DNA of 64,000 nucleotides from an uncultured Bacteroidota bacterium (GTDB taxonomy: Bacteria; Bacteroidota; Bacteroidia; Chitinophagales; Chitinophagaceae), in the NCBI GenBank assembly GCA_903878475.1, contig CAIRHQ010000004.1, forward strand, positions 3,477-67,476, in the 5' to 3' direction. Made by a program: the position numbers and the translations under genes. Each line of letters starts with the position of its first letter. Within the stretch, counting starts at the first letter, position 1. Positions 51,111 through 63,532 of the stretch are shown here, one piece after another. The notes beneath the pieces were generated by a model. That model was not told the DNA's origin. It worked only from the letters and a program-made list of their open reading frames with translations, and searched no databases.

Positions 51111-51143
51111 AAAAACCCACTTCACCAGTAAGTGGGTTTTTTT
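51111..51143 (+). terminator. Intrinsic terminator
   Basis: AAAAACCCACTT-loop-AAGTGGGTTTTTTT. Confidence 0.8.
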
Positions 51144-51191
51144 ATGTTGAATTCCCTTCATTCTATCTACCTTTCCGTTTCAAGCCAACAC

Positions 51192-52046
51192 ATGAAAAGA
51201 ATCGCTTTTACCTTTATCCTGCTCATATCTGCTTCTTTATTGTTTTCCCAAAGCAAGCCTGCCTACCTGCTCTATAATGCAAAAGGGAAAAAAATATCCT
51301 ATGCAAAAATGATCCGCAAGTTGGTTCAACAAGATATCGTGATGATCGGCGAGTACCACAATAATCCGATCAGCCATTGGATGGAACTGGAGATCACTAA
51401 GGATTGCCAACAGCAGCGCAATTGTATTTTAGGTGCTGAAATGTTTGAACAAGACAATCAGCCTGCACTTGACCTCTATCTTCAGGGCAAATTATCGGCC
51501 AAGGGGCTCGATAGCATGGCCAGGCTCTGGAAAAATTACCGCACGGATTACGCACCATTGGTGAATTTTGCCAAAGAAAATAAATTGGTATTTGCCGCCA
51601 CTAATATTCCACGTCGCTATGCTGTACTGGTATCAAAAGGAGGCTTTGAAGCGCTGGATACATTGTCCGCCACAGAAAAAACATGGATCGCACCACTACC
51701 TATTGCTTATGATGCTACCCTACCCGGTTATGTGAACATGATGACCATGATGAAGGGTCACGATTCAACCAATATTGCCAAGGCCCAGGCCATTAAGGAT
51801 GCCACCATGGCCTATTTTATTTTAAAATACTTTACCCCGGGCAGTTTGTTCATTCATTACAATGGAAGTTACCATTCCGAAAATCATGAAGGAATTGTAT
51901 GGTACCTTAAACGATCAAATCCTGGTATCCGAATAGCTACCGTTACTACTGTTTCGCAAAAGAATATTAAAAAGCTGCTTGCTGAAAATAAGCGTACAGC
52001 CGATTTTATTATCTGTGTGGATGAGGACATGACCAACACTTATTAG
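51192..52046 (+). CDS. ChaN-family (heme/iron uptake-associated) exported protein
   Basis: DIVMIGEYHNN, GAEMFEQDNQ, WKNYRTDYAPLV, ATNIPRRYA, AQAIKDATMA and HYNGSYHS. Confidence 0.8.
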   Translation: MKRIAFTFILLISASLLFSQSKPAYLLYNAKGKKISYAKMIRKLVQQDIVMIGEYHNNPISHWMELEITKDCQQQRNCILGAEMFEQDNQPALDLYLQGKLSAKGLDSMARLWKNYRTDYAPLVNFAKENKLVFAATNIPRRYAVLVSKGGFEALDTLSATEKTWIAPLPIAYDATLPGYVNMMTMMKGHDSTNIAKAQAIKDATMAYFILKYFTPGSLFIHYNGSYHSENHEGIVWYLKRSNPGIRIATVTTVSQKNIKKLLAENKRTADFIICVDEDMTNTY

Positions 52047-52777: not shown

Positions 52778-55700
52778 TCACATATTTCTTCTGTACTGTC
52801 CGCCCACTGCATAAAGCGCATTGGTGATCTGACCCATGGAGCAATATTTCACCGTTTCCATCAGTTCTTCAAACAGGTTCGCATTGGCAATGGCCTTTTT
52901 TTGTAATTGGCTCAATGCATCAGCAGATTTTTGTTGATTTCTTTTTTTGAATGCTTCCAATGAACGGATCTGTTGTTCTTTTTCTTCGGTGGTACTGCGG
53001 ATCACTTCTGTAGGCAGGATGGTGGGTGAACCATTCTTATTTAAAAAAGTATTCACGCCAACGATCGGGAATTCACCCGTATGTTTCAGCATTTCATAAT
53101 GCAGACTTTCTTCCTGTATCTTATTGCGTTGATACATTCTTTCCATGGCACCCAATACAGCACCTCTTTCTGTAAGGCGGTCAAATTCTGTGAGCACCGC
53201 TTCTTCTACCAGATCGGTCAGTTCTTCAATCAAGAATGCCCCCTGATTAGGATTTTCATTTTTTGCGGTACCCAGTTCACGGTTGATGATGAGTTGGATG
53301 GCCATTGCCCTGCGTACACTTTCTTCGGTAGGTGTAGTGATCGCTTCATCATAGGCGTTGGTATGAAGCGAATTGCAATTATCATAGATCGCATACAGCG
53401 CTTGTAGTGTAGTGCGAATATCATTAAAGTCAATTTCCTGTGCATGCAAACTGCGGCCCGAGGTTTGAATATGATATTTCAGCATCTGGCTGCGCTTGTT
53501 GGCCTTATATTTATACTTCATACTCTTGGCCCAGATACGACGGGCCACACGGCCGATCACACTGTATTCGGGATCCATGCCATTGCTGAAGAAAAAAGAA
53601 AGATTGGGTGCAAAATCATCAATGCTCATGCCCCTGCTCAGGTAGTATTCCACATAGGTAAATCCATTGCTCAGTGTAAAGGCCAGTTGGGTAATGGGGT
53701 TGGCGCCTGCTTCTGCAATATGATAACCGCTAATGCTAACGCTATAAAAATTCCGTACTTTCTCTCTTATAAAATATTCCTGCACATCCCCCATCAACTT
53801 CAGTGCAAATTCTGTACTGAAAATACAAGTGTTCTGTGCCTGGTCTTCTTTTAAAATATCTGCCTGAACCGTTCCCCGCACCTGCTGAAGGGCTTTTGTG
53901 CGTATATCCTCATAGACTGCTGCTGGCAACACATCGGCCCCGCTTAAGCCCAATAAACGTAATCCCAATCCGTTATTCCCTGCAGGTAAGGCCCCTTCCA
54001 TATTTCCACTAACGGGAGTCACTTCTTTTCCATCCACACCAATATATTTTGGCAGCAATTCACTACTGAAAATGGATTCTATTTTTTTATTGATCTCCGG
54101 AGCCAGTTTATTTTCAATGATATACTTCTCACATTGCTGGTCGATGGCAGCATTCAGAAAAAATGCCAGCATGATGGGGGCAGGACCATTGATGGTCATG
54201 CTCACCGAAGTTTTGGGATCACAGAGATCGAAGCCGCTGTATAATTTTTTTGCATCATCTACTGTAGCAATGCTTACGCCGCTATTGCCTACTTTTCCAT
54301 AAATATCGGGGCGTGGTGCAGGGTCTTCTCCGTATAGCGTAACGCTGTCGAAAGCAGTACTCAATCGTTTAGCAGGCTGTCCTTCTGATACATAATGAAA
54401 ACGCCTGTTCGTTCTTTCTGGTCCGCCTTCACCTGCAAACATTCGGGTAGGGTCTTCTCCTTCACGCTTCAAAGGGAATACCCCTGCCGTGAAGGGGAAA
54501 TGACCCGGAACATTTTCCTGTCCCTGCCATTTTAAAAGATCACCCCAGTCTTTATATTTAGGTAACAACACTTTGGGTATACGTGTACCGCTCAAACTCA
54601 AACTGAACATCTCCTGACGGATCACTTTATCTCGCACATTATATTCAAAATAATCCTTGTCGTAGGCCTTTCGCTTTTCCGGCCAGTTGCTGATCAATTT
54701 TCTGGCCACAGGAGTTAATTGTTCCGTAAAATAACTGATCTGTTTCCGCAGTGCGTCGAGCAGTGGCTCTTCCGCCTTGCCCTGCAGGTTCTCCAGCGCT
54801 CCCTGCAAACGATACAGGGTAGACGCAATTGCGCTTTGATCCCTTACCAGTTGATCATAATCCCTGATGGTTGCCGTGATCTCGCTCAGATACCGCACCC
54901 TGGATGATGGGATGATGGCTTGTGAGAGTGTTGCGGTAACTTCAAAATGATACGTACCAAAACTTACTCCAGTCTTTTTTTCCATGATGTTGAGCAACTG
55001 CACAAACAATTGATTCACTCCTTCATCATTGAATTTACTGGCGATAGAACCGATCACGGGCAGCGCTTCATTCTTTTCAGAAAAAAGTCCATGGTTGCGT
55101 TTAAACTGCTTGCATACATCATTATAAGCATCGAGTGCACCAGGCTTATCGAATTTATTGATGCAAACCAGGTCGGCATAATCCAGCATATTGATCTTCT
55201 CCAGTTGCGAAGCAGCTCCGTATTCGGGTGTCATCACATACATACTTACATCACAATAATCAAGTATTGACGCATCGCTTTGTCCAACCCCGGCACTTTC
55301 CAATATGATCATATCAAAGCCTGCTTCCTTGCAGATATCGATGGCTTCCTGCACATGAATACTTAAAGCGGTATTGTCTTCCCGGGTAGCGAGACTACGC
55401 ATATAGGCCCTGGGATTGGAGATGGCATTCATTCTGATCCGGTCGCCTAGTAAAGCACCGCCGGTTTTTTTCTTACTCGGATCAACCGAGATCACGGCAA
55501 TTGTTTTTTCTGAAAAATTATTGAGGAATCTTCGTACAATCTCATCCGTTACACTGCTCTTTCCGGCACCTCCGGTACCCGTGATGCCAAGAACAGGGGT
55601 GGTTTGCCGATCGGCTTTTGTATTGTTGGTTTCCTGTTTAGGATAAGGTTCACTATTTTCTGCCAGGGTAATGCAACGGGCAATGGTCTTAATATCCTTC

Positions 55701-56188
55701 CACTCTCCCAGTGCAAAACGATCTTGTGTAGACGATTTGCCGGGTGTAGCTAATGGTGGAACGGGTGAATCACATTGCTTTATCACATCTTCGATCATAC
55801 CTTCCAGTCCCATATGCCTTCCATCGTCGGGACTATAAATGCGGGCAATGCCATATTCATGCAACAATTCAATTTCAGCAGGCAGGATGGTTCCTCCGCC
55901 ACCTCCGAAGATCTTTATATGGCTGCATCCATTCTCATCCAGCAGGTCTTTCATGTATTTAAAGAATTCTACATGACCACCCTGGTAACTGGTGATGGCA
56001 ATACCCTGAACATCTTCCTCGATAGCTGTTTCAACGATCTCTTGTACACTTCTGTTATGACCCAGGTGAATGATCTCGGCACCTTTGCTCTGCATGATCC
56101 GGCGCATCACGTTGATGGCTGCATCATGCCCGTCGAATAGGCTGGCAGCGGTTACGATCCTTACTTTATGGCTGGTTGTATCTGGCAT
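52778..56188 (-). CDS. icmF: Fused isobutyryl-CoA mutase / MeaB GTPase chaperone (IcmF)
   Basis: N-terminal B12-binding DGHDAAIN, MeaB domain GTGGAGKSS / DRIRMN, C-terminal mutase barrel with [16 protein letters not shown] and [10 protein letters not shown]. Confidence 0.9.
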
Positions 56189-56223
56189 GGAAATCAAAAT
56201 AAATTAGCAATCGGTCAGTACAG

Positions 56224-56342: not shown

Positions 56343-56744
56343 TTATTTAAGAGTTCTGAGATAATTTACCACAGCCCACATACCATTAGGATCTGTGATT
56401 TTTTTCTTGAATGAAGGCATATCCTTACGGCCTTCTGCTGTTTTATAATACAAAGCACCGTCAGTTTGTGCAGTCAAATCTTTTGTAAAATCACCGCATT
56501 CTGTATCTAACTGAGAAGCTTTTGGACCATCTCCTTTCCCTTTTGTTCCATGACATGATTTGCAATGTGTGTTGTATAAGTCTTTGCCAGTGGCAATTGA
56601 AGCTGCATCAGCTTTAACCGGATTGGCTTTATTCTTAGCGGCATCAGGTACAGGCCAAGGGTCGTTGGTATTATGTTTTGGTACGAACGCTACCAGAGAA
56701 ATTGCAAAAACTACTGCGAAAAACACTGAAATTTTCTTTTTCAT
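56343..56744 (-). CDS. Periplasmic monoheme class I cytochrome c (ActE-like fold pattern)
   Basis: Signal peptide, NPV...GKDLYNTHCKSCHG.KGKGDGP, DGALYY and distal Met in DMPSF. Confidence 0.88.
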   Translation of the reverse strand: MKKKISVFFAVVFAISLVAFVPKHNTNDPWPVPDAAKNKANPVKADAASIATGKDLYNTHCKSCHGTKGKGDGPKASQLDTECGDFTKDLTAQTDGALYYKTAEGRKDMPSFKKKITDPNGMWAVVNYLRTLK

Positions 56745-56780
56745 TTTGTATCGATTTTAATTTTTATTGAATAAACAAAG

Positions 56781-57746
56781 TTACACATTAATTGGATTAT
56801 TTGGCTCGTGGGGCTCCTCTTTTCTAAGTCTTAACAATTCGAAAACAATGACAAAATAGTGGCCCCAAACGGTAGCAACCAGTATCACAAAAGTGATCAC
56901 CATCCATAGTGGAGGATGTGCACTCCATAAAGCCCTGGGCATTACAGAATTAACGTCAGAAACCGCTACTCCCCAGTTTTGACTGGTACTGGATTCAAGA
57001 TTTCCATAGGTTTCATTTTCATCTATCTTAGCGATCAGCGTAATATTTCCATTGGCATCTCCGGGTAATCCTTTCGGTATTTCCAGGGTTCCTTCACCGG
57101 TAGTATCGGTCGTTACTTCTCCCAGTTTCATAGGAAAGAACTGACGCTTTACAAATATCCCTACCACTATATTTGATACGCCGGCTTCTTTGCCTGTTCC
57201 TACATCAATCAGTTTCACTTTCACTGAGGTTACAGAATCCTCCTTAATGGGTGTAATATCGATCCTGGCTCGCTTTGCCGTTACTTCTCCATCGGTTGCT
57301 TCCATGGATTTATTGCCGGCAAACATCGCTTTAAAATGAACCTTTCCATCCTTATCCACCAACAACTGATTGGCCTTGCAGTTGAATACGCCTTTTCCAT
57401 TCAGGTCGGTAATGATGAAGCCCATTTCCTTATTAACGGTATCGGCTACCTGATAAAAAGTCACTTTTAATAGGGGCAGTTTAATGGTACTGCCTTTGAA
57501 TTTTGTTTTCAAGGCAACCTTCAAATCTACTGAGCTATCAGCTTTCTGTATACTCAATAGTTCTAAGGAGGGAGAAAGCAAACTAGGTTCTGTTGCAGCC
57601 ACTGTAGTATCTGCAGTTGTTTTAGCACTGTCGGCTTGTGCAAAAACATGACTGGGTAAAATATTTATTAATACACTAAGGGCAGCGCATACCAGTAGTT
57701 GCCGACATCCTTTAATAAGCGCCTGATTTTTTGAATATTTTTTCAT
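56781..57746 (-). CDS. Hypothetical exported beta-rich protein with C-terminal membrane anchor
   Basis: Signal peptide ending VFAQ, beta-rich body, C-terminal TM PPLWMVITFVILVATVWGHYFVIV; lies inside the operon. Confidence 0.75.
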   Translation of the reverse strand: MKKYSKNQALIKGCRQLLVCAALSVLINILPSHVFAQADSAKTTADTTVAATEPSLLSPSLELLSIQKADSSVDLKVALKTKFKGSTIKLPLLKVTFYQVADTVNKEMGFIITDLNGKGVFNCKANQLLVDKDGKVHFKAMFAGNKSMEATDGEVTAKRARIDITPIKEDSVTSVKVKLIDVGTGKEAGVSNIVVGIFVKRQFFPMKLGEVTTDTTGEGTLEIPKGLPGDANGNITLIAKIDENETYGNLESSTSQNWGVAVSDVNSVMPRALWSAHPPLWMVITFVILVATVWGHYFVIVFELLRLRKEEPHEPNNPINV

Positions 57747-57756
57747 AAACTATTTT

Positions 57757-59106
57757 TTAAGCAGAAGCGATTTCATTTTCATTCAATACGGGTTGTTCAG
57801 CCGTTGTTCCCTTATTAGCAAACTCAGAGATGGGTATCACCGTTACAAATTTTGACATTAAGGTAAAGAACAGGAAGAATGTGGCTATCCCACCAAAGGT
57901 GAGGGCCCATTCTACCCAGGTAGCTGTATATTTCACATACTCAATTCTTGTATCCTGCATAGGAAGTAAAGGAGATTCCAATGTAGGTACAATGATCAGG
58001 TATCTTTTTACCCATAATGCGATCACCATGAACAAAGAAACCAGTGCAATCAGGTTGGGTGTTCTGGTTTTGGGCAAGGCTACTACCACAATCGGTAATA
58101 GAATACCTGCAACATTCGCAAACAAGAACCACCATCCGTATTTGGCCGGGTTGAACAATTTTTCAAGTACTTCACTTTCCCATTTTTCTGAAGCAAACCA
58201 ACCGGTGAGGTATTCAGAAAAAGTAAAGTATCCATAACCTGCACCCAATACCATCATGATATAACCCAGGTAAATAAAATGTTTATCAGTAAGATAGCTT
58301 TGCAATCCGTACATCTTCCTGTACACCCACATTGCCATGATCAACACACCGGTACCGGAATAAATAGCGGCCAGTACAAAATAAGGTCCAAAGATGGTAC
58401 TATGCCATCCTGGGCGAAGGGTCATACCAAAGATCCAAGACAATACAGAGTGTACGATGATGGCCAGCGGTACAATCATGATGGCCATAAGATTGGTACT
58501 GATGCGGATATGTCTATTCTGACTATGAGTTCCACGATAACCAATGGCAAGGATCTTATATAATTTTTGTTTCCATTTTGGAATATTCAATTTAGCATCA
58601 CGGTAAATGGCAAAGTCTTTGATCAATGCCAGATACAAGAAGATCACACTACCTGTGAAATAAGTACTGATGGCCAGTACGTCCCAGGTAATAGGTGATT
58701 GCAGCCTGGGATAGATGAACAGGTGATGAAGCCTGTCGAGCCTACCCACACATAATAAGATATACACCGGACCAATGATGGTAGCGATCACGGTGATCAT
58801 TTCAGCGATCCTGATAATGGGTTTTCTCCATTCCACTTTCAGGATATGCAGGATACCGGAAATAACGGCGCCGGCATAACTGATCCCGATAAAGAAAATG
58901 AAGTTGGCGATATACAAACCCCAAACCACATTGTCGCGCATCCCTGTAATACCATGTCCCTTCGTGATTTGAAGGTATAAGGCATATCCACCCAAAAGAA
59001 TCCAGGCCATAAAAAAGATAGTCCAAGCCCAGGTTTTTTTTCCGAAATTTTCGATAACCGGACGTTGTTTATCAAAAGCTTCCTGTTGATATTTATTGAG
59101 TTCCAT
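57757..59106 (-). CDS. nrfD: NrfD/PsrC/ActC-family quinol-interacting membrane subunit
   Basis: VVWGLYIANFIFFIGISYAG, WRKPIIRIAE, SPITWDV, HSVLSW, RPGWHSTIFGPYF and RYLIIVP; about 10 TM segments. Confidence 0.88.
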   Translation of the reverse strand: MELNKYQQEAFDKQRPVIENFGKKTWAWTIFFMAWILLGGYALYLQITKGHGITGMRDNVVWGLYIANFIFFIGISYAGAVISGILHILKVEWRKPIIRIAEMITVIATIIGPVYILLCVGRLDRLHHLFIYPRLQSPITWDVLAISTYFTGSVIFLYLALIKDFAIYRDAKLNIPKWKQKLYKILAIGYRGTHSQNRHIRISTNLMAIMIVPLAIIVHSVLSWIFGMTLRPGWHSTIFGPYFVLAAIYSGTGVLIMAMWVYRKMYGLQSYLTDKHFIYLGYIMMVLGAGYGYFTFSEYLTGWFASEKWESEVLEKLFNPAKYGWWFLFANVAGILLPIVVVALPKTRTPNLIALVSLFMVIALWVKRYLIIVPTLESPLLPMQDTRIEYVKYTATWVEWALTFGGIATFFLFFTLMSKFVTVIPISEFANKGTTAEQPVLNENEIASA

Positions 59107-59148
59107 AATGATTAATATTCATGGTTAATTCAAATACTGTTTTGGTTC

Positions 59149-60108
59149 TTATTTTTCTGTGCCTTCCATGGCATCTTTATAACGCGCTTTGATCTTGTCG
59201 GGAAGGTTCTCATATCCCCTTTCCACAGGGAACTGCCTGTCTTTTGGTGGCAGATAATATACCCGTGGTTTGGTTCCTAATTCTTCCATAAACCTGTATC
59301 CTGCGCGGTCTTTGATCAACTGTTTGAAGCCTAGGGTTTCATCACCATTGGAAACGGTGTCTTCATTTTCATCTCCATAATAGAATACACCATTTGGACA
59401 AGCTTCCACGCATGGTGGCAGCAGGCCTACACGAGCTCTATCCGGACAGAAATCACATTTTTCAACTGTACCCACTTTAGCAGGGATATTGGTTTCAGGA
59501 TTAGATACTGCATGCTGAATATCAAATGGCATCTCGGGTTCATTCCAATTGAACACCCTGGTTGAATAAGGACAGGCGGCCATACAGAATTTACATCCGA
59601 TGCATCTTTCATTATCTATTAATACCAGACCATCCTGTCTTTTATAAGTAGCGTCTACCGGACAAACCTTAACGCATGGCGGGTTGTCGCAATGGAAACA
59701 CTGTTTGGGAAACCAGTAAGGTGGTGCATTTTCACTGTCGCGCATCAGTTTTACCGTTAACCACTCACGGTCTTCGGGGCGATAATGCCATTTCTGACAA
59801 GCGGAAATACATTTACGGGCATCTTTGCAACGGGATAGATCTACTACCATTACAAATTTCTTACCCGCGATCCCCTGCCTGGCTTCCAGTTTCGACACAA
59901 TGGCCAAATGTTCCTGGTAATTCAGGTAAGAAGAATCGATCTCCACGATCTCGCCATCGGGAGAAAGCAGTTTTACTTTTTCATTAGCAGCTACTTTTGA
60001 ACTGCATGAGCTTGCCAAAGTACCGCATGCAGCAGTAGCAACTGTAGCAAGGGCAACCGTTTTTATAAAATCTCGGCGGCCGTTGTCATTGGTTTCTAGT
60101 TCTTTCAT
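59149..60108 (-). CDS. NrfC/DmsB-type 4Fe-4S dicluster protein with Tat-lipoprotein signal
   Basis: GRRDFIK, hydrophobic stretch and ASSC lipobox; CKDARKCISAC, CFHCDNPPCVKVCP, CIGCKFCMAACP and CDFC...PPCVEACP; GTKPRVYY. Confidence 0.88.
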   Translation of the reverse strand: MKELETNDNGRRDFIKTVALATVATAACGTLASSCSSKVAANEKVKLLSPDGEIVEIDSSYLNYQEHLAIVSKLEARQGIAGKKFVMVVDLSRCKDARKCISACQKWHYRPEDREWLTVKLMRDSENAPPYWFPKQCFHCDNPPCVKVCPVDATYKRQDGLVLIDNERCIGCKFCMAACPYSTRVFNWNEPEMPFDIQHAVSNPETNIPAKVGTVEKCDFCPDRARVGLLPPCVEACPNGVFYYGDENEDTVSNGDETLGFKQLIKDRAGYRFMEELGTKPRVYYLPPKDRQFPVERGYENLPDKIKARYKDAMEGTEK

Positions 60109-60127
60109 GAAATAAAATTTGAAAGGA

Positions 60128-60358
60128 TCAAATATTGTTTTCTTTAGAAGGATTTTCCATCCAGTCATAAATTTGCTGGTTGCTGGCTTTTTTTTGAGAG
60201 GTCAGTTTATCCAGAATGGCTTTGTCGACCTCCACCAGTTTGCCATCAGGAGTGAGCATTTTTACTTTCCCGGAACCGGTTGTAGCATTACTCTTTGGAG
60301 TAAAAAGTGATAAAAACCAGCGGCGGGATTTTGTGTCGGAATTTGAATTGTTTCCCAT
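60128..60358 (-). CDS. Small hypothetical protein (76 aa) with twin-arginine motif, paralogous to the Fe-S subunit N-terminus
   Basis: SRRWFL plus KVKMLTPDGKLVEVD, versus GRRDFI plus KVKLLSPDGEIVEID in the next gene. Confidence 0.75.
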   Translation of the reverse strand: MGNNSNSDTKSRRWFLSLFTPKSNATTGSGKVKMLTPDGKLVEVDKAILDKLTSQKKASNQQIYDWMENPSKENNI

Positions 60359-60440
60359 TGTATTTTGTAATTGATTATAAATAAATAATGACAGTAACAA
60401 TCACAGATGCAATATTATCCATGCAATTTTTACCATCTCA

Positions 60441-60664: not shown

Positions 60665-61855
60665 ATGAAAAAAATTTCATTGATCAAAGCAACGACACTC
60701 TTCCTTGCAGTTATGTTCGTTTCTGCTTCTATTATCCAGTGTAAAAAAACCGGCGACATTGTAAAAGACCTGGACAGGTCATTCAAAGGCTCGGCCGACA
60801 CTACTATTTATGCTGCTTTTTATGAGAGCAACACCATCACTCCAGCTGATGCAACAGCTGATGTGAATGATGTAATTAAATTCCGTGGAGTACAAACCAT
60901 CATCCACGAATATTGCGCTACATCTAATTGTCATGGCGGCCCTATCGGTCCTAAATTCGATACCTATGCCGACATCATGAAATATGTAGTGGCTGGCAAT
61001 CCTGAAGGAAGCAAAATGTGGGATTATTTGACCACCAACAACTTCGACAAGGCAATGCCTCCGGTTAATTCTAATCACGAAATGACCGTGACCGACAAAA
61101 ATCTTCTTTACAACTGGATCAAGAATGGTGCGAAAGAAAAACCAAACCTGGCCGATTTCAGACCAGCAGCTGTAACGCTGATCGGAAATGGTTGTGCTTC
61201 TGCTAACTGCCATAATGAAGCTACTTCTACAGGCGGTTGGGCAAGGGCAGGATTTATCCCTGGCTTAGTAACTGGTGACACTTCACAATATACATATATT
61301 AGCCCCTCTAATGGAGCGGCTACTATTTATTGTCAGCTTTCTAATGCAACTGTTCGCAACCAAGTTTGGAATGCATATAAAGACAGTGTAAGGAAATTCT
61401 ATTCTGATACCGTAGCTTTTGCAAGTTTCCGTCCATGGAAAACATTTGCTACACCACGTTCTGCCTTAAGCACCCGCGGACCACTGAATACTTATGATGA
61501 TATCATGCTTGATATTATGTATCCAAAAAGTATCAGAAGCAATTCATCTGTTCAATATACAGATCCTGTTACTTTAAAAACTTTTTACTCAAAAGGCAAT
61601 TACTTAAATGTTGCCAGTACAATCGTTAGTCGGATTGACTCCACTTTATTAGTGGCCAATCCTTTCACAGGAATCTATCAAACTTCTAGCCAAGGTGATA
61701 TGGCCTATGGTGATGGTGGTTTGAAAGCCAATGAGATCGCGCTGGTTAAAGCCTGGTATTTTGCCGATCCAAATATTCCTGATGTATGGAAATATGGCGT
61801 AAACAATGCCGGTATTTTCAAATACAGGAAAACAGGTAACATCATCAAAAAATAA
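60665..61855 (+). CDS. Lipoprotein with two planctomycete-type cytochrome c-like domains carrying CX4CH motifs
   Basis: Lipobox IIQC; CATSNCH...VVAGNPEGSKM...AMPP...LYNWIKNGA; second domain CASANCH...DMAYG...EIALVKAW. Confidence 0.7.
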   Translation: MKKISLIKATTLFLAVMFVSASIIQCKKTGDIVKDLDRSFKGSADTTIYAAFYESNTITPADATADVNDVIKFRGVQTIIHEYCATSNCHGGPIGPKFDTYADIMKYVVAGNPEGSKMWDYLTTNNFDKAMPPVNSNHEMTVTDKNLLYNWIKNGAKEKPNLADFRPAAVTLIGNGCASANCHNEATSTGGWARAGFIPGLVTGDTSQYTYISPSNGAATIYCQLSNATVRNQVWNAYKDSVRKFYSDTVAFASFRPWKTFATPRSALSTRGPLNTYDDIMLDIMYPKSIRSNSSVQYTDPVTLKTFYSKGNYLNVASTIVSRIDSTLLVANPFTGIYQTSSQGDMAYGDGGLKANEIALVKAWYFADPNIPDVWKYGVNNAGIFKYRKTGNIIKK

Positions 61856-61885
61856 TTGATACGATCATTCTAAAATTTTAGATAT

Positions 61886-62500
61886 ATGAAAAAAGTAGTA
61901 GTAACAATGGCGGTAATAACTTCAATGCTTATTTACCTCTTGTCATCTTGTTATAAAAACAAAGAAGATATCCTGGCCCTTCCAAAAATTTCATTCCGGT
62001 CAGATGTAGTGCCCATCATCGTTGCCGGTGGATGCGGTTGTCATAACAACGGACAAGCATCAAGAGCTGTCCAATTCTCTCATGCCGATACTATTTTTTA
62101 TGATGGTATCCTAGCCCGTCTTTCTTTATTTGATTCTTGGGTAAATGGCGGAACCCATCCAGGTGGTGGCATGATCGATTTTAAATCCAACGAAAAAACG
62201 ATCATTAAAAAATGGATCGCCGAAGGTGGTAAAGATGATGGCGGTGGTTGTACTGTTGCCGGTGTAATTACGCACACAGCCAAGATCCAGCCAATTTATC
62301 TTACAACCTGTAAGGGTTCTACCTGCCATGGTGGAATTGCGCTGACCCTTGATTACGCCAAAATGAAATCAGATGTTTCTATCATCACTTCTATGATGAA
62401 TAGTGGTGGAGCCAGTGGACATCCGGGTGGAGCATTGAGCCTGAGCACCTGTACCGTAAATACATTTAAAGAATGGATTGCACAGGGTCAACCCCAATAA
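61886..62500 (+). CDS. Lipoprotein with duplicated cytochrome c-like domains (CXCH and CX4CH)
   Basis: Lipobox LSSC; SFRSDVVPII..CGCH..HPGGG..KWIAEG and THTAKIQPIY..CKGSTCH..HPGGA..EWIAQG. Confidence 0.68.
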   Translation: MKKVVVTMAVITSMLIYLLSSCYKNKEDILALPKISFRSDVVPIIVAGGCGCHNNGQASRAVQFSHADTIFYDGILARLSLFDSWVNGGTHPGGGMIDFKSNEKTIIKKWIAEGGKDDGGGCTVAGVITHTAKIQPIYLTTCKGSTCHGGIALTLDYAKMKSDVSIITSMMNSGGASGHPGGALSLSTCTVNTFKEWIAQGQPQ

Positions 62501-62559
62501 TCATTAACCCGATATTTTACAAATTCTAAATGAATGTTATGAAAATAAAATCAGTTGAT

Positions 62560-63471
62560 ATGAAAAAGATACTTTCGCTCCTTGTATTTTGTCTGGGTTT
62601 CACCGCCTTCACCATTGCACAGGATGCCACCAAAATAACTAAAGAAAAAGCCGTTCCAAAATATGCCCGCGCTACTTTCAATTCTTCCCGCATCATCAAC
62701 ATGCAGAGTACAGAAATGGTAAGTAAAGGTGCATTGGAATTCATGATCTCTCACCATTTCAGCAATATCTGGAATAAGGATGCAGGATCTCAGAACCTGG
62801 CTCAGTTATTCGGACTGAACTCAGGTGTTGCACATACTTATTTATCATTCTCTTATTCTCCACTCAACTACATGAATGTGGGTTTAGCTGCAGCCGGAAA
62901 CTCTAAATATGAAGGCTGGCTAAAATTCAAACTGCTGCGTCAGCAAACAGGTTCTAAGAACATACCTGTTTCCGTTGCCTTATATTCAATGATGAATATC
63001 AATACAGCAAAGGATCCTGACCAATCATTTGCCGGAAACAAGATCGCTTTTGTGAATCAATTGTTGATCTCCCGCAAAATGACTGATAAACTGTCTCTGG
63101 AACTGATCCCTACCTGGGTACATTTCAACATCGTTCCTTACGGTATCAACAACAGTAACGAGGTATTCTCTTTAGGTTTAGCAGGAAGGTATAAAATAAA
63201 ACCAAAAATGAACCTTACGCTGGAGTATACACGCCAACTGAATATGTATGAGAACCTGATCACTAAGAACGGCAGTATCCTCAATTATCAGCCTAACCTG
63301 CTCTCTGCCGGTATTGAAATCAATACAGGCGGTCACTTGTTCCAATTCTACATCGGCAGCACAACAGATGCTTCTCTGCTTGACCAATTGGCTCGTAACA
63401 ACAGCAGTATTAAAGACGGTAATTTCGCTTTCGGCTTCACCATCAACAGAAGCCTGAGTTTGAAAAAATAA
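62560..63471 (+). CDS. DUF5777-like outer-membrane beta-barrel protein
   Basis: Signal peptide; ATFNSSRIINMQSTE, LEFMISHHF, KFKLLRQQTG, QLLISRK and INTGGHLFQFY; start MKKIL at 62560 preferred. Confidence 0.8.
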   Translation: MKKILSLLVFCLGFTAFTIAQDATKITKEKAVPKYARATFNSSRIINMQSTEMVSKGALEFMISHHFSNIWNKDAGSQNLAQLFGLNSGVAHTYLSFSYSPLNYMNVGLAAAGNSKYEGWLKFKLLRQQTGSKNIPVSVALYSMMNINTAKDPDQSFAGNKIAFVNQLLISRKMTDKLSLELIPTWVHFNIVPYGINNSNEVFSLGLAGRYKIKPKMNLTLEYTRQLNMYENLITKNGSILNYQPNLLSAGIEINTGGHLFQFYIGSTTDASLLDQLARNNSSIKDGNFAFGFTINRSLSLKK

Positions 63472-63501: not shown

Positions 63502-63532
63502 AAAAAAGCCGACCAAACAGGTCGGCTTTTTT
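63502..63532. terminator. Bidirectional intrinsic terminator
   Basis: AAAAAAGCCGACC-AAACA-GGTCGGCTTTTTT between convergent genes. Confidence 0.88.

Follow-up and report, generated by a model that had tools for sequence, protein, structure and literature searches.

Two lipoproteins with four unusual Cys-His motifs

The 64,000-nucleotide stretch of DNA analyzed here (hereafter the window) belongs to contig CAIRHQ010000004.1 of an uncultured bacterium of the Chitinophagaceae, in the phylum Bacteroidota. Two consecutive genes of this stretch, designated A and B, encode lipoproteins that are probably dihaem c-type cytochromes in which none of the four haem sites has the canonical form CXXCH. Gene A (60665-61855) specifies a protein of 396 amino acids (aa) with two cytochrome c domains resembling the Pfam family PSCyt1, and gene B (61886-62500) one of 204 aa with two cytochrome c domains in tandem; both genes and the features described within them lie on the + strand. 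Each open reading frame (ORF) begins with a signal peptide and a lipobox cysteine, Cys26 in A (...SIIQC26) and Cys22 in B (...LSSC22), and this residue is kept in all orthologues of the two proteins. A sequence-only reading of the window had announced two lipoproteins devoid of CXXCH and carrying four putative haem c motifs. CATSNCH, CASANCH, CGCH and CKGSTCH were indeed located exactly where it had placed them, with 4, 4, 1 and 4 residues between the cysteines, and neither A nor B contains a CXXCH.

The same reading had described a planctomycete-type cytochrome frame around each motif, and its distal loops and closing W-x-x-x-G helices were all recovered and proved to be conserved. In domain 1 of A, CATSNCH (60914-60934, aa 84-90) supplies C84, C89 and H90. 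The MPP loop that follows (61055-61063, aa 131-133) lies at the end of the PSCyt1 profile, aligns with the 'RMPP' of the Fe(II) oxidoreductase FoxE and contributes M131, the predicted distal methionine of haem 1; the domain closes with the helix NWIKNGAK. Domain 2 of A starts with CASANCH (61193-61213, aa 177-183; C177, C182 and H183) and is interrupted by an insert of about 150 aa located between the CH and the methionine loop. This loop reads DMAY (61697-61708, aa 345-348), so that MPP is represented by M-A-Y with M346 as the predicted distal methionine of haem 2, and it precedes the closing helix AWYFADPN. In B, both domains carry HPGG instead of MPP. Domain 1 combines the contracted motif CGCH (62033-62044; C50, G51, C52 and H53) with an HPGG loop (62156-62167, aa 91-94) whose H91 is the predicted distal ligand replacing the methionine of MPP. 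Domain 2 combines CKGSTCH (62309-62329, aa 142-148; C142, C147 and H148) with a second HPGG loop (62420-62431, aa 179-182) in which H179 is the predicted distal histidine. The closing helices of B are KWIAEGG and EWIAQGQ.

The optimal signal for export of Bacteroidota lipoproteins to the cell surface has been defined as C-X-K-(D/E)2-X (PMC5080379). The corresponding contexts are C-K-K-T-G-D in A and C-Y-K-N-K-E-D in B: both have the lysine at +3, and their acidic residues lie too far downstream.

Conservation of the motifs and of their predicted ligands

Conservation was counted among 185 distinct orthologues of A and 198 distinct orthologues of B, with a mean identity to the window proteins of 75% and 71%, respectively. 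The residues C84, C89, H90, M131-P-P, C177, C182, H183 and M346 are invariant in 185/185 orthologues of A, and M346 is also kept in those of only 40-59% identity. Likewise, C50, G51, C52, H53, H91-P-G, C142, C147, H148 and H179 are invariant in 198/198 orthologues of B. The alignment that had been suggested as a check on the motifs thus upheld them, since every motif cysteine and the histidine following it are retained throughout both sets.

The motifs are also far too rare to have arisen by accident. Across the ORFs of this genome that reach 100 aa or more, totaling 1.04 million residues, only 19 CX4CH and 4 CXCH were counted, along with 53 CXXCH. The corresponding chance expectation per 600 aa is about 0.01 for CX4CH and about 0.002 for CXCH. 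CH occurs after the C-x4-C spacing in 6.7% of cases, after C-x2-C in 9.8% and after other spacings in 1-4.7%. Because CX4CH and CXCH are so rare in the genome, and because the motifs are invariant in the orthologues, a chance origin of the four motifs is excluded.

A different question is whether the Cys pairs could be relics that no longer bind haem. They would then form disulfides or, together with the adjoining histidine, Zn, Cu or Fe sites, and A and B would act as structural or binding partners of the outer-membrane barrel encoded next to them. The absence of any canonical CXXCH in A and B fits such a scenario, and so do the lack of a family match for B and fold searches that proved uninformative. 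A disulfide, however, requires neither the following histidine nor a remote methionine or histidine, yet all of these are invariant. B itself provides an internal comparison with its two further cysteines, C122 (62249-62251) and C189 (62450-62452). This pair is conserved in distant relatives of B and both members were lost jointly in two B orthologues, whereas the motif cysteines are never lost; C122/C189 are therefore read as a probable structural disulfide and not as a haem site. Moreover, the positions of the odd motifs are occupied by CXXCH in orthologues and paralogues, and the neighbouring genes encode redox proteins. We consider haem-free relics very unlikely.

Relationship to the PSCyt1-like cytochromes

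The affiliation of A is visible in Pfam, at the very limit of detection. A scores 22.0 bits against PSCyt1 (PF07635) for a cut-off of 22, over aa 89-133, from the second cysteine to the MPP loop. The alignment begins at profile position 4, which is this second cysteine, so that the CXXCH of profile positions 1-5 remains unmatched. Relative to the profile, the displacement of the first cysteine amounts to two residues in A, and to minus one or plus two in B. A precomputed PSCyt1 match exists in only 3 of 120 close homologues of A. In total, 907 homologues of A were found, among which one orthologue already bears the name cytochrome, and 657 homologues of B, a protein that is called "hypothetical protein" in every source.

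The comparison with more remote relatives places the odd spacings in context. A HMMER search of 1.84 billion representatives returned 214 matches, the best 150 of which hold 142 CX4CH and 131 CXXCH sites. Both forms mostly share the same proteins of two to six domains (for example CAMSGCH, CAMSGCH and CKGCH in succession) within the same [VIL]-x-P-[IL] ... W-[I]-x-x-G frame. At the homologous site of these relatives the cysteines are separated by 1 to 8 residues, often with different spacings inside a single polypeptide. One protein (P0266) has the spacers CX4, CX3, CX2 and CX2, and another (P0388) contains twin repeats, one bearing CSCH and the other CVSCH, the CSCH repeat being otherwise canonical and MPP-bearing; longer spacers were seen in P0279, L115, P0316 and P0407. 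Among the full-length orthologues of A, one of 40% identity (P0245) carries CGNCH and CTAQCH (CX3CH) in place of the two CX4CH motifs.

The origin of B can be traced in the same manner. Genome and profile searches uncovered relatives of about 230 aa, also lipoproteins, in which 'CAMSGCH...MPP' is followed by 'CVGCH...PMP' and which match Pfam PSCyt1 and Cytochrome_CBB3; some are named 'c-type cytochrome domain-containing protein'. B aligns with these two-domain proteins with HMMER expectation values (E) of 1e-9 to 1e-16. Its CGCH falls on their CAMSGCH or CTMAECH and its CKGSTCH on their CVGCH, CTGCH or CIGCH. H179 occupies the exact column of the 'PMP' methionine of the CXXCH relatives, and H91 lies within one column of the relatives' methionine. 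As these relatives carry CAMSGCH...MPP and CVGCH...PMP at the same positions, B is, on the evidence of alignment, a derived form of a widespread dihaem family, in which CX4CH was shortened to CGCH in domain 1, CXXCH was lengthened to CX4CH in domain 2, and histidine took the place of the distal methionine in each.

Searches of the Protein Data Bank (PDB) led in the same direction. With phmmer, A retrieved FoxE (5mab) through the half-domain 'PGNPE.SK...MPP...WIKNGAK'. A profile of the B family retrieved FoxE, PccH (4rlr), the C-terminal haem domain of hydrazine synthase alpha and cytochromes c6; the 'CAM--CH' of hydrazine synthase alpha was aligned with 'CAMSGCH'. TIGR01904, the CxxxxCH/CxxCH domain, was also tried as a home family and rejected: it gave chance-level matches to relatives (E ~0.008) and none to A or B.

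Judged by these comparisons, A and B have a PSCyt1-type domain build with their odd Cys spacings at exactly the CXXCH position of the relatives and invariant predicted distal ligands. They are diverged members of the PSCyt1/FoxE-like superfamily, in which they form a derived branch and not a family apart. The sequence-only reading had spoken of a cryptic cytochrome family in Bacteroidota that annotation would call hypothetical. The term suits B, always "hypothetical" and without Pfam or NCBIfam match, but a separate family it is not, the superfamily to which it belongs being very large. For A, the expected annotation as hypothetical holds in part only, given the PSCyt1 score at the cut-off and the orthologue already named cytochrome. 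The CX4CH form is, in addition, common in Bacteroidota, and the name already given to many superfamily members is "c-type cytochrome domain-containing protein".

Predicted haem attachment

The genome of the window contains a single PF01578 match, an 839-aa ORF of the CcsBA-type System II synthase; a second synthase or a separate ResB was not found in this genome. A CcmB-like and a CcmC-like gene form a pair beside System II (G000:C195:3152-6607). Other Ccm components were not seen in the stretch read around this pair, and no genome-wide search for them was made. A private haem lyase for the odd motifs was considered and rejected for this genome, which holds the single CcsBA-type ORF and the CcmB/CcmC-like pair only.

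In the mechanism that we favour, this one synthase would attach haem to the three CX4CH sites and to the contracted CGCH alike, the length of the Cys-Cys loop being variable in the PSCyt1/FoxE-like domain family. A would keep His/Met ligation, with the axial pairs H90/M131 and H183/M346. In B, the exchange of both distal methionines for H91 and H179 would create two bis-His haems, expected to have a lower potential because bis-His replaces His/Met.

The contracted site is the one for which occupancy can be questioned, and a mixed situation may be envisaged in which the three CX4CH motifs bind haem and CGCH is haem-free or holds haem by a single thioether, domain 1 of B then serving a structural or docking role. 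This domain is the most diverged from its relatives, having passed from CX4CH to CXCH and from MPP to HPGG, and the confidence of the B model is lowest near residues 51-60. CXCH has one experimental precedent (PMC7096707), and a dedicated lyase paralogue was not found in the genome. Against this, C50, G51, C52, H53 and H91 are invariant in 198/198 orthologues, which goes beyond the need of a relic. An independent CSCH is present in a canonical MPP-bearing repeat beside its CVSCH twin (P0388), and the spacer varies freely in the PSCyt1-like family. Mixed occupancy thus appears rather improbable to us.

The A-B-DUF5777 unit and the divergent operon

A and B are followed on the + strand by a third gene, C (62530-63471), which encodes an outer-membrane beta-barrel of the DUF5777 family (Pfam PF19089, E 8e-68). 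The intergenic gaps between A, B and C are of 30 and 29 nucleotides, so that the three genes form one transcription unit, closed by a strong intrinsic terminator (63502-63532, +) with a 13-bp stem containing 6 GC pairs and a T-run.

On the opposite strand, a divergent partner operon (56343-60400, -) was delineated from Pfam and NCBIfam matches and translations. It encodes a small twin-Arg protein, a 4Fe-4S (FeS) subunit exported by the twin-arginine translocation (Tat) pathway and similar to DsrO/NrfC, an NrfD-type membrane subunit, an anchored 321-aa protein (U321) and a canonical monohaem cytochrome c. The small twin-Arg protein, whose gene (60128-60400, -) precedes that of the FeS subunit, is similar to the N-terminal part of this subunit. 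At one locus of another lineage (L129), it matches both a separate 100-aa ORF and the FeS subunit (E ~1e-6 each), which supports a separate remark on this protein in the sequence-only reading.

The full eight-gene arrangement, with the partner operon on one strand and A, B and DUF5777 diverging from it, is kept in 56/80 loci, and most exceptions are contig ends. In one genome (G139) the operon is found about 10 kb from A, with two additional cytochrome and DUF5777 pairs in between. Elsewhere the same components are co-linear: L128 presents a string composed of a 126-aa CNTASCH cytochrome, DUF5777, FeS, NrfD, U321 and cytochrome c, and L129 is similar. A, B and DUF5777 together with Tat-FeS, NrfD, U321 and cytochrome c constitute a conserved gene cluster, which would tie a quinone-dependent membrane complex to an outer-membrane barrel.

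It could be argued that A and B are true cytochromes standing outside such a chain, and that A-B-DUF5777 is an independent envelope module, involved for instance in peroxide or small-molecule redox reactions or in iron or haem handling, merely co-located with the FeS/NrfD genes. DUF5777 (87/201 genomes) is indeed far more widely spread than this NrfD clade, Flavobacteriaceae and other families possess the cytochrome, YceI and DUF5777 genes without FeS/NrfD genes nearby, and at five loci with complete flanks no such operon is present within 7 kb. The divergent arrangement has been maintained in 56 of the 80 loci, however, and the two other lineages represented by L128 and L129 hold cytochrome and DUF5777 in a strand-contiguous string with FeS-NrfD-U321-cytochrome c. 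An independent module seems unlikely to us on balance.

Other genes deserve mention. Just upstream of the redox cluster, the window encodes a ChaN/Tiki-type 'haem-binding uptake' protein (51132-52046, +; Pfam E 1e-57) and a 1139-aa fusion of B12-binding, MeaB GTPase and methylmalonyl-CoA-mutase-like domains of the IcmF type (52778-56197, -). A second, paralogous FeS and NrfD pair exists in the same genome (L131; G000:C153:1-2314), its NrfD sharing 41% identity with that of the window. A third NrfD-type gene, on contig C92, shares 31% identity with it. This level of identity and its near-universal distribution are what we take to be expected of ActC of alternative complex III, for which the gene is a candidate.

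Distribution and variants of the module

B orthologues with the signature CGCHNN were found in 176 species-level genomes, all of them Chitinophagaceae or Chitinophagales, including the isolate Ferruginibacter sp. SUN106, whose locus L065 has the complete eight-gene set. Strong matches to B (E <=1e-55) in a sample of 401 genomes of the phylum were restricted to the window's own family. DUF5777 has a wider range, being present in 87/201 sampled Bacteroidota genomes. At 25/30 DUF5777 loci, inspected with flanks of 1.5 kb, an adjacent gene encodes a cytochrome of the PSCyt1-like family with CXXCH or CX4CH.

In two cases the cytochrome and the barrel are one protein. L132:1072-2337 (-) encodes 421 aa and L133:973-2211 (-) 412 aa, each with an N-terminal CX4CH cytochrome domain (CAQAGCH and CVQSGCH, respectively) fused to a DUF5777 barrel, and these fusions argue for a physical association of cytochrome and barrel. 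Immediately downstream of each fusion lies a separate 150-aa CX4CH lipoprotein. The two fusions look like the fused cytochrome-porins of the Cyc2 type, with an unrelated barrel.

Other loci associate a small cytochrome c, a YceI-like protein of 182-184 aa (PF04264) and DUF5777, as in L125:5421-7225 (-) from a Flavobacteriaceae-type genome and in L127:5246-7264 (-) from another Chitinophagaceae genome. YceI proteins bind isoprenoid lipids, and their presence here may indicate that a lipid or quinone takes part in the module.

The genome of the window harbours two more modules, outside the window, in which a CX4CH PSCyt1-like lipoprotein accompanies DUF5777 (G000:C22:9267-12071 and G000:C130:3160-6799). 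Their lipoproteins are of 132 aa (CSLSGCH..MPP) and 129 aa (CNASGCH), each encoded downstream of a larger exported protein. One of these larger proteins, of 479 aa, contains CYASCH and a 'TIDG..W' N-terminus that by eye resembles the EB_dh/CBM9 domain; the other is a 418-aa immunoglobulin-repeat protein with a C-terminal CSGSGCH domain.

A putative quinone-to-outer-membrane system

Taken together, the genes and their conservation make it probable that A and B are lipid-anchored dihaem class I c-type cytochromes with four odd haem sites, operating with DUF5777 and the NrfD operon in a system that extends from quinone to the outer membrane. Electrons would pass between menaquinol and the periplasmic cytochrome c by way of the NrfD/FeS complex, with A and B shuttling them towards, or away from, the outer-membrane DUF5777 barrel. 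A-B-DUF5777 and Tat-FeS/NrfD/U321/cytochrome c would in this way be the two parts of a single electron-transfer system linking the menaquinone pool to the outer membrane.

Several points weigh against this assignment. Haem attachment is deduced from homology. B matches no Pfam or NCBIfam model, and CXCH has a single experimental precedent (PMC7096707). In Wolinella, CX15CH and CXXCK need dedicated lyases (PMC7096707), and the present genome holds a single CcsBA plus the CcmB/CcmC-like pair. The AlphaFold2 models are of moderate quality, with a mean predicted local distance difference test (pLDDT) score of 75 for B and 70 for A and the lowest confidence at the motif loops. A Foldseek comparison of both models with the PDB returned noise only; it is listed here and yet weighed neither way, since small haem domains modelled without their cofactor are poor queries. 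Finally, the five loci with full flanks and no FeS/NrfD operon within 7 kb fit the proposed coupling poorly.

A bolder version may be put forward tentatively and is, in our opinion, more doubtful than the assignment itself. The system could be an undescribed porin-cytochrome conduit of aerobic Bacteroidota, placing the menaquinone pool in electrical contact with the outer membrane or the cell surface and, for instance, with an extracellular metal or another small redox substrate. One System II synthase would in that case accept spacers of 1-8 residues, and B would contain the second natural CXCH haem, with bis-His ligation.

CXXCH scans are the standard means by which cytochromes are counted and extracellular electron transfer is predicted in genomes and metagenomes. 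A and B both escape such scans, and so would roughly one haem site in two across a very large family of Bacteroidota. Should the sites of A and B be real, a single System II synthase tolerates anything from 1 to at least 4 residues between the cysteines, a finding of consequence for the rules by which cytochrome c biogenesis selects its substrates, and CGCH would be no more than the second contracted motif on record. The conserved link between a quinone-dependent NrfD complex, these lipoprotein cytochromes and the uncharacterised barrel DUF5777 points to an unstudied envelope redox system in heterotrophs abundant in freshwater, soil and activated sludge. The cultured carrier Ferruginibacter sp. 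SUN106 makes this system open to testing.

Comparison with known systems

Literature searches on DUF5777, on CX4CH in Bacteroidota or Bacteroidetes and on PSCyt1 returned nothing relevant, and the comparison was made with systems described in other contexts. The closest are the PSCyt1 proteins themselves (PF07635, 'Planctomycete cytochrome C'), among them the 'CAMSGCH + CVGCH' dihaem lipoproteins of Bacteroidota, which have in common with A and B the V/I-x-P-I/L helix, the Cys...Cys-His and the W-I-x-x-G-A closing helix, and with domain 1 of A also the distal M-P-P loop. A and B differ from them in being devoid of any CXXCH. In B, CXCH and CX4CH stand in the place of CXXCH and histidine in that of both distal methionines; in A, the CH and the methionine loop of domain 2 are set apart by the insert of about 150 aa.

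FoxE, the dihaem Fe(II) oxidoreductase of Rhodobacter ferrooxidans SW2 (PDB 5mab/5mvo), is the best match among solved structures and is, like the proposed A and B, dihaem and periplasmic. The alignment covers the half-domain 'PG.PE.SK....MPP.....W I K.GAK' only and is weak (E 0.026 with a single sequence, 7.5e-4 with a profile). FoxE has canonical CXXCH motifs, is not a lipoprotein and belongs to a foxEYZ context, whereas A and B are found with FeS/NrfD and DUF5777. An Fe(II) oxidase function, as might be read from FoxE, was not adopted, the half-domain similarity being too weak.

Haem motifs other than CXXCH have been described, namely CX3CH, CX4CH and CX11-17CH (PMC11492766). Cytochrome c3 and other multihaem CX4CH cytochromes, including the Geobacter TIGR01904 type, are comparable to A and B in having covalent CX4CH sites, sometimes beside CXXCH, but their fold and family are unrelated. 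For the contracted form, PMC7096707 describes a CKCH motif binding haem in a tetrahaem cytochrome of Kuenenia. The contracted motif of Ferousi et al. 2019 is given as 'CXCK' in PMC11492766 and as CKCH (CXCH) in PMC7096707. This Kuenenia stuttgartiensis protein, KsTH, can be likened to B by its motif: a one-residue spacer is followed by the proximal histidine. In B, on the other hand, the middle residue is an invariant glycine, and B would be a dihaem Bacteroidota lipoprotein set in another gene context. The spelling CKCH agrees with the title of the 2019 paper.

At the level of the whole system, the nearest analogies are Cyc2, MtrAB and PioAB/MtoAB, which resemble A-B-DUF5777 in the genetic coupling of an outer-membrane barrel with a c-type cytochrome, L132 and L133 representing the fused forms of cytochrome and DUF5777. 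DUF5777 differs from these barrels by its small size of about 250 aa and by the absence of sequence kinship to Cyc2, MtrB or PioB, its only match being PF19089. The cytochromes also differ: the A-B module would employ mono- or dihaem lipoproteins, with two sites each in A and B, whereas the MtrAB type relies on a decahaem cytochrome threaded through the barrel. What A-B-DUF5777 appears to share with the porin-cytochrome conduits is the link to an inner-membrane quinone module.

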